A stretch of DNA of 64,000 nucleotides from contig JBAYIQ010000001.1 in the NCBI GenBank assembly GCA_041665545.1, positions 137,911-201,910 on the forward strand. The letters run 5' to 3'. Source of the DNA: Patescibacteria group bacterium. GTDB taxonomy: Bacteria; Patescibacteriota; Patescibacteriia; UBA1558; GWA2-36-10. A program made the translations under genes and the position numbers. The stretch's first letter is position 1. The number at the start of each line of letters is the position of its first letter. This document shows positions 19,966 to 20,373 of the stretch, in pieces. The notes under the pieces were generated by a model. That model ran no database searches. It saw nothing but the letters and a program-made list of their open reading frames with translations, and was not told the DNA's origin.

Positions 19966-19979
19966 AAAATAATAAATAT

Positions 19980-20222
19980 TTATTTTTTAAGCAACTTTTG
20001 AAAAGCTTCCCCGCCTTTGTACTTTTTAATCTGTAACTCCCTACGATAAGTATCATTACGATTATTAAAATTTTCAATATGCTTTATTACCCAGGAGATG
20101 CCATTTTTCGTAGATCTGACTTTACCAGCGTTATGCAACATTAATCTATTTTCTATATTTTTTGTATGACCAATATAATATCTATCTAACTTACTACTAT
20201 ATAAAATATAAACTACAAACAT
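19980..20222 (-). CDS. GIY-YIG nuclease superfamily protein (80 aa)
   Basis: VYILYS...RYYIGHT..N...R..HN motif order typical of small GIY-YIG (URI) proteins. Confidence 0.8.
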   Translation of the reverse strand: MFVVYILYSSKLDRYYIGHTKNIENRLMLHNAGKVRSTKNGISWVIKHIENFNNRNDTYRRELQIKKYKGGEAFQKLLKK

Positions 20223-20233
20223 CGCTTTCTTGA

Positions 20234-20311
20234 AGATTTATGCCGCCTCGGGCGGCACCCCGCCCGCCGGCGGTGGCAGTCTGTCCCGGTTGACCACTTC
20301 GGTACCGACCC
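20234..20311 (-). pseudogene. tRNA-Tyr-like 5' fragment with GC-rich hairpin inserted in the anticodon loop
   Basis: GGGTCGGTACCGAAGTGGTCAACCGGGACAGACTG + 36-nt GC insert + TAAATCT; no T arm; preceded by a copy of the tRNA-Tyr leader ATAATAAATATTTATT (20334-20349 vs 19969-19984). Confidence 0.65.
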
Positions 20312-20373
20312 TCCACACTAATACTTACCCAAGATAATAAATATTTATTATCTATAAAAAATTACAAAACTCA

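Follow-up and report, generated by a model that had tools for sequence, protein, structure and literature searches.

tRNA-associated GIY-YIG nucleases

The closest described analog of the element treated here is SegB of phages T4 and T6, a free-standing GIY-YIG homing endonuclease encoded within a tRNA gene cluster. SegB cuts inside tRNA genes and drives the co-inheritance of its own gene with the neighboring tRNA genes, and a tRNA-Tyr-containing segment is amplified by homologous recombination, truncated gene copies included (PMC2330249; PMC13096335). The enzyme is phage-borne, belongs to the I-TevI/Seg branch and recognizes ~27 bp centered on the T-psi-C motif. Proteins of this branch carry a C-terminal DNA-binding region. 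The locus described here lies in a 64,000-nucleotide stretch of a Patescibacteria group bacterium (assembly GCA_041665545.1, contig JBAYIQ010000001.1, positions 137,911 to 201,910; hereafter the window, to whose full length the coordinates of the locus refer). The gene of an 80-residue GIY-YIG nuclease stands there between the disabled 5' half of a tRNA-Tyr gene, interrupted by GC-rich hairpins, and an intact tRNA-Tyr gene. As judged by sequence comparison the locus has a probability of roughly 60% of being one copy of a widespread homing-endonuclease-like selfish cassette that occupies tRNA genes and is spread by recombinational repair, always leaving one intact tRNA. The cassette rather likely comprises the minimal GIY-YIG gene, the intact tRNA, and a disabled duplicate of part of that tRNA, with stable GC hairpins in its loops.

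The likeness to SegB consists in a GIY-YIG gene situated among tRNA genes, and arrays of half-tRNAs at the related loci L008, L014, L034 and L030 resemble the SegB-driven amplification. Unlike SegB, the cassette protein has only 80 residues, is Slx1/UPF0213-like, and is chromosomally encoded without phage, plasmid or PHROG relatives; moreover the cassette breakpoints are in the anticodon loop, and SegB has no counterpart to the conserved GC hairpins of the disabled tRNA copy. A second comparison is with GIY-YIG ORFs (open reading frames) of fungal mitochondria, which, in work by Paquin, Laforest and Lang from 1994 and 2000, are said to insert into an essential gene and to bring with them a duplicate of the part that they displace. 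The function of the gene is reportedly kept and the old part left behind as a pseudogene fragment, and in Allomyces mitochondrial DNA GC-rich double hairpins within an AT-rich genome are said to be associated with such insertion points. These elements are reportedly organellar, have protein-coding targets, and have their ORF fused in frame to the duplicated C-terminus. In contrast, the target of the cassette is a tRNA gene in free-living bacteria, either half may be duplicated, and the hairpins are found in loop-coding positions of the disabled copy.

The protein itself resembles the minimal GIY-YIG proteins of UPF0213/COG2827 (BH0048, 1zg2; EF2693, 1ywl; the YazA/YhbQ type) and eukaryotic Slx1 in sequence, in fold and in being a bare catalytic domain. 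Slx1 requires Slx4 and cuts branched DNA; the cassette clade is instead tied to tRNA genes with duplications. Finally, integrative elements that use att sites in the anticodon or T loop of tRNA genes share insertion into a tRNA gene, partial duplication and retention of one intact gene, but they rely on a tyrosine or serine recombinase, extend over kilobases and leave a duplicate of the 3' part, whereas the cassette has no recombinase, measures ~350 nt and, in Patescibacteria, duplicates the 5' half. No published description of a chromosomal, tRNA-embedded clade of minimal Slx1-like nucleases that spans phyla and is accompanied by partial duplications was found in the searchable literature, which lacks most subscription journals, nor was one found there of conserved hairpins in loop positions of a disabled tRNA copy; earlier work on either is possible. 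The recurrence of the layout at tRNA genes in three bacterial phyla points to a selfish element, apparently not described before, that enters tRNA genes but preserves one functional copy.

Structure of the tRNA-Tyr locus

All elements of the locus lie on the minus strand, bounded by the stop of a TPR-repeat gene (20374) and by a tRNA-Thr(GGT) gene (19739-19664). Their order is leader, linker, tRNA-Tyr 5' half, GC-rich insert, the heptamer TAAATCT, an 11-nt spacer, the ORF, a second leader and the intact tRNA-Tyr (Table 1), the inserted DNA amounting to only ~350 nt. This order had been given in the original prediction, made from the sequence alone, and was borne out together with all its coordinates; the 36-nt insert that was placed exactly in the anticodon loop indeed falls between G34 and U35 and is followed by TAAATCT. 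The leader core AATAAATATTTATTAT is found twice, at 20349-20334 and 19984-19969, and the match reaches 22 of 23 nt through "YTTGGGT". Over its 35 nt the 5' half shares 86% identity with the intact tRNA-Tyr of the window (blastn-short E=6e-5 within its own locus), and together with its own linker it is 88.9% identical over 63 nt to the intact tRNA-Tyr plus leader of a relative, L001 (E=3.5e-15), so that the resemblance of the fragment to tRNA-Tyr is significant. Its acceptor strand GGGTCGG differs, as had been noted, from the GGGTGGA of the intact gene and equals the acceptor of the intact tRNA-Tyr in the relatives L001, L057, L061 and L012.

A promoter and terminator scan gave no convincing minus-strand promoter upstream of either leader copy, although promoters of the Candidate Phyla Radiation (CPR) may not fit the consensus. 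Rfam matched only tRNAs, both in the locus region at E<=10 and in the whole window at gathering score; the hairpins were unmatched and no intron was detected. No recombinase of the tyrosine or serine type is encoded between the tRNA copies, and duplication has affected the 5' half, not the 3' half. The GIY-YIG gene of the locus is the only one in the window. A GC-rich trailer follows the CCA end of the intact tRNA-Tyr; related trailers also follow tRNA-Tyr in L057 and L012, and it is uncertain whether the trailer is part of the element.

Recurrence at tRNA genes

A pattern scan of one genome per species yielded 44 loci that encode relatives of the protein (36-65% identity) in Patescibacteria, Ignavibacteria and Bacteroidota, including cultured Flavobacterium and Chryseobacterium (L038-L040, L045, L049, L051, L052, L055), whose homologs make the question accessible to bench work. 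In 39 of the 44 loci the ORF has a same-strand tRNA gene no more than 71 nt away. In two further loci (L023, L051) the ORF abuts a tRNA fragment, the intact tRNA gene being at a distance of 257 or 524 nt; in one the nearest tRNA is 107 nt from the ORF, and in the remaining two the ORF is 43-60 nt from a contig end. The family is thus not one that turns up at random non-tRNA positions without duplications. When each tRNA was aligned to its own locus, a partial copy of the linked tRNA was found on the far side of the ORF in nearly all loci.

In Patescibacteria tRNA-Tyr, or in some loci tRNA-Ser, comes immediately after the ORF and a 5' half forms the extra copy; the layout of 5' half, double hairpin, ORF and tRNA is kept in ~25 loci. 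The tRNA-Tyr 5' copies comprise gene positions 1-35 and are mostly 100% identical to the gene; additional 3' copies start at 36. All tRNA-Tyr breakpoints therefore coincide at G34|U35, and at the tRNA-Ser locus L030 the breaks are likewise within the anticodon loop. Bacteroidota and some Ignavibacteria show a mirror layout in which an intact tRNA (Ala, Val, Arg, Ser or Gly) with a terminator is followed by the ORF and then by a pseudo-tRNA. The 5' acceptor strand of this pseudo-tRNA is overwritten by the ORF end, a hairpin (TYCCGA-loop-TCGGRA or CCCGCC-loop-GGCGGG) stands in place of its anticodon arm, and an extra hairpin is often present in the T loop. A neighbor-joining tree of 48 ORFs of 80 residues is poorly resolved and was used only for tRNA identity, which is mostly clade-specific with switches among Tyr, Ser and Gly and between Val and Arg; in this rough tree the group with the ORF before the tRNA (Patescibacteria, Ignavibacteria) is apart from the group with the tRNA before the ORF (Bacteroidota).

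In CPR relatives tRNA-Thr(GGT) or tRNA-Asn is immediately preceded by a second GIY-YIG paralog (Table 1), 34% identical and of the mainstream YazA-like UPF0213 clade, which sometimes carries its own hairpin-bearing 5' tRNA fragment. The corresponding interval of the window (19752-19664) has no such paralog, since just 13 nt separate the GC-rich trailer from tRNA-Thr.

Two minor observations concern the same set of loci. Five of them (L019, L022, L029, L032, L037) come from metagenome-assembled genomes labeled "uncultured Gammaproteobacteria" and are indistinguishable from those of Patescibacteria in locus structure, tRNA clusters and hairpins; these taxonomic labels are probably wrong. In L014 (1501-1780), L034, L019, L030, L015 and L002 a gap of 0-4 nt separates the ORF stop codon from the start of the tRNA, and the L014 reading frame enters the tRNA and ends in the anticodon loop, at its TAA. 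If a co-transcript were cut by RNase P, the mRNA would lack a 3' UTR or a stop codon, which might serve as a built-in limit on expression of the nuclease.

The GC-rich double hairpin

The original prediction had described the insert as a GC hairpin. It is present at the predicted place, but the comparative data give two adjacent 7-bp hairpins rather than one, in the window H1 (CACCGCC-GGCG-GGCGGGG) and H2 (TGCCGCC-CGA-GGCGGCA). The Tyr-type junction, i.e. (A)GACTG, H1, H2, TAAA(T/C)C, then 8-25 nt and the ATG, is found in 23 of 25 Tyr-type loci. The stems at these junctions are CACCGCC-loop-GGCGGGG for H1 and TGCCGCC-NNN-GGCGGCA for H2, and the hairpin loops are free in sequence and in length (3 to ~40 nt). 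Compensatory variants occur in the stems of both H1 (TCCCGCC/GGCGGGA, CCCCGCC/GGCGGGG, CTCCGCC/GGCGGAG, CACTGCC/GGCAGGG) and H2 (TCCCGCC/GGCGGGA), which argues that the double hairpin is selected as a structure. In the commonest H1 stem an A.G mismatch recurs at position 2; all other imperfect stem pairs are G.T and readable on the sense strand, and the structure under selection is probably that of the transcript or of the sense strand of the DNA. The two-hairpin model is based on these comparative data and not on single-sequence folding: the DNA of the window's insert can instead form one nested hairpin (-17.4 kcal/mol; z=-3.1, better than shuffles), and the 5' half plus insert folded as RNA is no better than shuffles (z=-1.76).

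Related structures are found more widely at broken tRNA genes. Single hairpins of the CCGCC...GGCGG type occupy the D loop of many 5' fragments and the T loop of 3' fragments, and the window contains 11 hairpins of this type against 0.5 expected from shuffles, 8 of them within 300 nt of a tRNA gene. The hairpin type varies by lineage, being TYCCGA...TCGGRA in Flavobacteriia. The hairpins are observed in broken tRNA copies only, never in an otherwise full-length gene.

Gain, loss and rearrangement of the cassette

The order of genes for fructose-bisphosphate aldolase, the TPR protein and tRNA-Tyr defines a syntenic site at which relatives can be compared. A metagenome scan with the neighboring TPR protein for empty or occupied alleles gave two loci, of which one (L057) was useful. 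The site is empty in L057 and in L061 (the latter a Nomurabacteria contig of 842 kb), where 26 and 77 nt, respectively, separate tRNA-Tyr from the TPR gene; it is occupied in the window, L001, L012/L013 and L065/L066. The comparison with relatives that had been proposed thus found both states, and presence/absence polymorphism at one defined site in syntenic genomes is a hallmark of homing endonuclease genes.

L001 is reciprocal to the window. Its upstream fragment has the GGGTGGA acceptor of the window's intact gene and its intact gene has the GGGTCGG of the window's fragment; downstream there are two units of (CA)GACTG, double hairpin and 3' half, and the 3' end of the last unit matches the upstream fragment, so that the old tRNA appears in effect to be split around the cassette. 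The flanks of the two loci are 90-91.5% identical and the ORF 88.5% at the nucleotide level; given this similar divergence, the mismatch between fragment and intact gene may stem from recombination among the repeats of the locus rather than from a recent foreign invasion. Rearranged forms are found elsewhere: L014 and L034 have tandem arrays of 3' units, L008 has three 5' units with an ORF in the middle one only, and L030 has two units of pseudo-5'-tRNA-Ser plus ORF with the ATG inside the anticodon loop. One protein of identical sequence, P0013, is found behind two upstream contexts, each with a different displaced 5' half. The arrays and P0013 are taken as hints of amplification and mobility.

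Hairpin-bearing tRNA fragments that have no GIY-YIG ORF were also seen in the window, all on the minus strand, with hairpins in D, anticodon or T loops: a tRNA-Thr(TGT)-like 5' half upstream of tRNA-Thr(CGT) (28310-28183), a tRNA-Glu 5' part upstream of tRNA-Glu (58747-58638), and two tRNA-Val fragments (58365-58311 and 58207-58140). The intact tRNA-Val (58301-58225) is nested between the 5' fragment (GGGCATA...) and the 3' fragment (...TATGCCCACCA), whose acceptor strands pair with each other and not with the intact tRNA-Val. Such fragments (Thr-CGT, Glu, Val) look like ghosts of sites that have lost the ORF.

The original prediction had called the locus the scar of a nuclease-associated invasion or gene conversion at a tRNA gene. 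The invasion or conversion is favored by the tRNA linkage, the partial duplications, the empty sites L057 and L061 and the reciprocal L001; "scar" is less apt, in that the conserved layout in Patescibacteria, the compensatory stems and the purifying selection do not suit a passive remnant, and the mismatch of the two tRNA copies is perhaps a product of recombination within the locus.

The 80-residue GIY-YIG protein

The match to the GIY-YIG family scores 47.2 bits against a cut-off of 22.6 (Table 1), and Y5, Y16, G18, R26, H30 and E62 are invariant in an alignment of 24 homologs, which has no invariant or near-invariant Asn beyond E62. A signature Y-x-R-E-L-Q-I-K characterizes the clade. The dN/dS of the ORF is 0.21 against L001 and 0.12 against L012; together with the invariant catalytic residues these values make the ORF look functional, and the comparison indicates purifying selection. 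The AlphaFold (AF2) model (pLDDT 95.6) has the topology beta-beta-alpha-alpha-beta-alpha-alpha, and its best PDB matches are UPF0213 proteins and Slx1. A profile search of the PDB gave 1zg2 at E=1.5e-8, 1ywl at 1.1e-7, Slx1 at 4e-4 to 1.5e-2 and I-TevI at 0.012 to 0.29; by Foldseek the Slx1 nuclease domain gave a TM-score of 0.66-0.72 (rmsd 1.7-2.4 A) and I-TevI 0.49-0.54. The ORF stops after the catalytic domain, so that the DNA-binding module, and with it the domain layout of a homing endonuclease, is absent. The Slx1-like branch has been delimited by a minimal domain without the conserved C-terminal Asn of the UvrC/homing-endonuclease lineage, and has been described as vertically inherited repair proteins, tRNA genes not being mentioned (Dunin-Horkawicz et al., PMC1564403).

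On sequence and model the protein is accordingly assigned to the GIY-YIG superfamily, whose members have GIY and YIG motifs, an active-site Arg and Glu, and an alpha/beta fold of ~70-100 residues, and within it to the Slx1/UPF0213 (COG2827) branch, as a prokaryotic Slx1-like protein. The placement that had been proposed, made by profile search and Foldseek, favored this branch over I-TevI, and the expectation of a classic homing nuclease holds for the GIY-YIG domain (PF01541) but not for the I-TevI/Seg type, the protein being a bare 80-residue domain of the Slx1/UPF0213 branch. A family profile finds 4,459 clusters (50% identity) at E<=1e-10. NCBIfam has no family for the protein, and PADLOC gave weak partial matches only.

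Proposed mechanism

The coincident breakpoints, the retained intact tRNA, the disabled half, the empty and occupied sites, the arrays and the ghosts together suggest the life cycle of a free-standing homing endonuclease gene. The nuclease would break the tRNA-Tyr gene in the anticodon loop, at or beside G34|U35, and the break would be repaired by homologous recombination with the half-tRNA of the cassette as template on one side and the intact tRNA on the other. The broken gene would thereby receive copies of hairpin, ORF, leader and 5' half. In the loci compared, the outcome is always the resident 5' half, the double hairpin, the ORF and one intact tRNA, the essential tRNA thereby being kept. 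The ORF stands downstream of the resident leader copy and might use the resident tRNA promoter, though no promoter-like site is predicted there. In the leftover half the anticodon loop is split by the double hairpin. The hairpins may thus destroy the anticodon-loop site and interrupt homology, such that the hairpin-bearing half would be neither re-cut nor recombined back into the working gene. The anticodon loop of the intact copy is normal, so that continued cutting and ectopic repair are to be expected, and these may be the cause of the tandem arrays of half units (5' half with hairpin, or hairpin with 3' half) seen in relatives and of the swaps of tRNA alleles; for phage SegB such an outcome has been demonstrated by experiment. 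Sequence comparison shows the anatomy of the locus, its recurrence, its polymorphism and the selection on its parts, whereas cleavage and its position, the part played by the hairpins and the basis of targeting are inferred.

The best guess as to targeting, given the Slx1-like fold, is a structure-dependent recognition, and the structures in question might be a cloverleaf or a stem-loop in the displaced strand of the heavily transcribed tRNA gene; dimerization or a host partner protein is an equally possible basis. A bolder form of the proposal, possible but doubtful, is that the cassette is a new class of mobile element, whose 80-residue Slx1-like nuclease finds the cloverleaf or stem-loops of tRNA genes, or its own GC hairpins, and holds an essential tRNA "hostage". 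If so, hairpins planted in loop-coding positions disable the resident gene, the sole working copy stands beside the nuclease gene, loss of the cassette is lethal, and the hairpin family spreads with the cassette.

Several findings weigh against a selfish homing cassette. The bare catalytic domain belongs to a branch regarded as vertically inherited repair enzymes (PMC1564403) and has no known route to sequence-specific targeting. The intact tRNA beside the ORF keeps a normal anticodon loop, with no obvious immunizing difference from the tRNA of the empty site L057; one would therefore expect the host copy to be cleavable, an unusual situation among homing endonucleases. No relatives were found in PHROGs, IMG/VR viral contigs, GenBank phages or PLSDB plasmids, and a horizontal vehicle has not been seen. 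The near-equal divergence of ORF and flanks between the window and L001 is as compatible with local rearrangement during a long vertical residence as with recent transfer, and the second context of P0013, near a contig end, could be an assembly chimera. Lastly, a 65%-identical ortholog of the YazA-type paralog in Staphylococcus carnosus is part of a housekeeping operon with no tRNA nearby (yabA, an MTS-type methyltransferase of PF05175, GIY-YIG, and a TP_methylase of PF00590, rsmI); tRNA linkage is thus a property of particular clades and not of the whole branch.

Alternative explanations

The hairpins might themselves be the mobile agents, i.e. non-autonomous repeats that enter tRNA loops, with the GIY-YIG protein acting on them in trans as a structure-specific nuclease in the manner of the RAYT transposase of REP sequences, and with tRNA duplication as the way in which host or element survives a hairpin hit. 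Much about the hairpins would suit this: the CCGCC-loop-GGCGG family is found in D, anticodon and T loops of fragments of several tRNA identities in different genomes, some loops are partly homologous (e.g. CCGCCTTCGYTCCTCGC...GGCGGG in the Glu fragment of the window and the Thr fragment of L002), the hairpins are in excess in the window and mostly near tRNAs while several sites are ORF-less and just one GIY-YIG gene is present, the type changes with lineage, and an Slx1-like fold is appropriate to branched or hairpin DNA. Against this, the hairpins were seen in broken tRNA copies only, terminal repeats or target duplications of the hairpins were not found, strand transfer is not known for GIY-YIG enzymes, and in Tyr-type loci the position of the hairpins is fixed relative to the ORF, as fits a cassette component better; mobile hairpins are therefore considered unlikely. 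Comparably improbable is a nuclease that serves its host, either as a domesticated factor for tRNA-gene amplification or repair, e.g. against tRNA-cleaving toxins, or as an RNA-directed enzyme whose mRNA leader or autoregulatory site would be the pseudo-tRNA with its hairpins, the duplications being by-products. The purifying selection on the ORF and its divergence in step with the flanks, window against L001, are as expected of such a factor, and SegB-driven tRNA-Tyr amplification is adaptive for phage T6 (PMC13096335). The G.T stem pairs on the sense strand (besides the recurrent H1 A.G mismatch) hint at RNA or sense-strand structure, ORFs that end at or inside the tRNA start would place the mRNA under the control of RNase P processing, and a Firmicutes relative of the paralog adjoins tRNA and rRNA methyltransferase genes. 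Against a host factor stand the presence or absence at a syntenic locus across relatives, the switches of tRNA identity among related nucleases, the ORF-less ghost sites and the ORFs in tandem; broken tRNA halves, too, are leftovers of selfish insertion and not what one expects from a housekeeping gene. Both the mobile hairpins and the host factor fit the presence/absence pattern and the broken halves less well than does a selfish cassette.

Two other explanations have very little probability. A degenerate tRNA group I intron with a homing endonuclease gene would be in keeping with insertion at 34/35, which is also the insertion point of the classical tRNA-Leu(UAA) group I intron; in favor of an att-site scar of an integrase-driven island, tRNA genes are common integration sites. 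Group I 5' exons end in U as a general rule, whereas the residue here is G; the locus has no group I or II intron or other Rfam family at E<=10, and the complete second 5' half and leader after the ORF are not needed for splicing. There is likewise no integrase, the insert is ~350 nt, and it is the 5' half that is duplicated. With no Rfam intron, a second 5' half plus leader and no recombinase, both the intron and the integrase scar are effectively refuted. Least probable of all is a chance tandem duplication or replication slip that put an unrelated small ORF beside a tRNA. The short direct repeats (leader copies) that flank the unit might suggest it, but the same layout is found at dozens of independent loci in three phyla, fragment and intact gene are different alleles, and the hairpin element is conserved. 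The recurrence across loci refutes chance, and the original prediction was right that a simple tandem slip is not involved.

Implications

A selfish cassette of this kind would give a concrete role to a large Slx1-like clade (~4,500 clusters at 50% identity) for which only "predicted repair" has been suggested so far. The essential and usually single-copy tRNA genes of reduced Patescibacteria and of common Bacteroidota would then be sites of conflict with a tiny selfish element, and this would account for the abundance of tRNA fragments and GC-rich hairpins that crowds these loci and makes them hard to annotate. The reshaping and amplification of tRNA genes by GIY-YIG nucleases would extend from phages to cellular chromosomes. 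tRNA-linked GIY-YIG nucleases are already known in phages (SegB), and there is a real chance that the targeting principle is new; the finding raises the question of how a bare catalytic domain achieves targeting.

Other features of the window

Table 1. Coordinates of the tRNA-Tyr locus, of a repeat family in the window, and of the YazA/UPF0213-type paralogs in relatives
Feature	Position	Strand	Remarks
Upstream leader copy, AATAAATATTTATTATCTTGGGT	20349-20327	-	22/23 nt same as 19984-19962
15-nt linker, AAGTATTAGTGTGGA, part of "type B" tRNA-Tyr	20326-20312	-	Homologous to leader ...GGATAAGTATATTGGCAT before intact type-B tRNA-Tyr of L001
Pseudo-tRNA: tRNA-Tyr 5' half, positions 1-34, "type B" (GGGTCGG acceptor)	20311-20277	-	GGGTCGGTACCGAAGTGGTCAACCGGGACAGACTG, 35 nt; ends exactly at G34
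36-nt GC double-hairpin element (DHE), CCACC...GGCGGCA	20276-20241	-	Between G34 and U35
TAAATCT, tRNA-Tyr positions 35-41 resumed	20240-20234	-	Identical to 19930-19924 of intact gene; TAAA(T/C)C kept in relatives
80-residue GIY-YIG nuclease gene, ATG start, minimal Slx1/UPF0213-like	20222-19980	-	PF01541, E=2.7e-12
Downstream leader copy	19984-19962	-	Overlaps ORF stop codon (19982-19980); covers first 4 nt of intact tRNA
Intact tRNA-Tyr(GTA), "type A" (GGGTGGA/TCCACCC acceptor)	19965-19880	-	ARAGORN; Rfam RF00005, 57.5 bits
GC-rich (~60%) hairpin-forming trailer after CCA end	19879-19753	-	11-nt perfect inverted repeat ATTCGACTCC/GGAGTCGAAT; GC profile
CCA-end repeat family	19663-19528, 51507-51400, 58140-58083; related 19879-19753	-	
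YazA/UPF0213-type paralog	L001 3755-4009, L002 1669-1914, L012 2952-3215, L057 4103-4349		
YazA/UPF0213-type paralog	L061 1501-1752, L063 1501-1764, L065 1501-1749		

A GC-rich, hairpin-forming repeat family, (CCA)CTCGATTCGCCTTTTGCTTCGCAAAAGNCTCACTCGTGGTCTACG..., is found at the CCA end of tRNA-Thr(GGT), of tRNA-Lys and of an old tRNA-Val fragment (Table 1), and two of the copies terminate in GAAGGGCACGAGATA; a terminator, a processing signal and another mobile repeat are possibilities. In L057 (4361-4726) a tRNA-Thr(GGT) gene is split just after the anticodon loop by an insert of ~300 nt, its exons being otherwise intact; the insert matches no Rfam family, group I introns included, at E<=1.

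On the minus strand of the window, 35354-35000 is a GC-rich and strongly structured intergenic stretch of ~350 nt, flanked by a promoter-like TTGACA...TATGCT sequence and by a stem-loop with a T run (CAGGGAGGA...TCCTCCCTGTTTTCTTTTT). Rfam gave nothing for it, whether at gathering score or at E<=1, and it is possibly an unannotated non-coding RNA gene. Three segments (12740-14000, 51800-52700, 55900-57310) exceed 62% GC, against 39.7% for the window, and contain long overlapping ORFs on both strands, e.g. 12724-13428 (plus) with 12763-14079 (minus), and 51774-52493 (minus) with 51801-52700 (plus); these are possibly foreign DNA or unusual genes.

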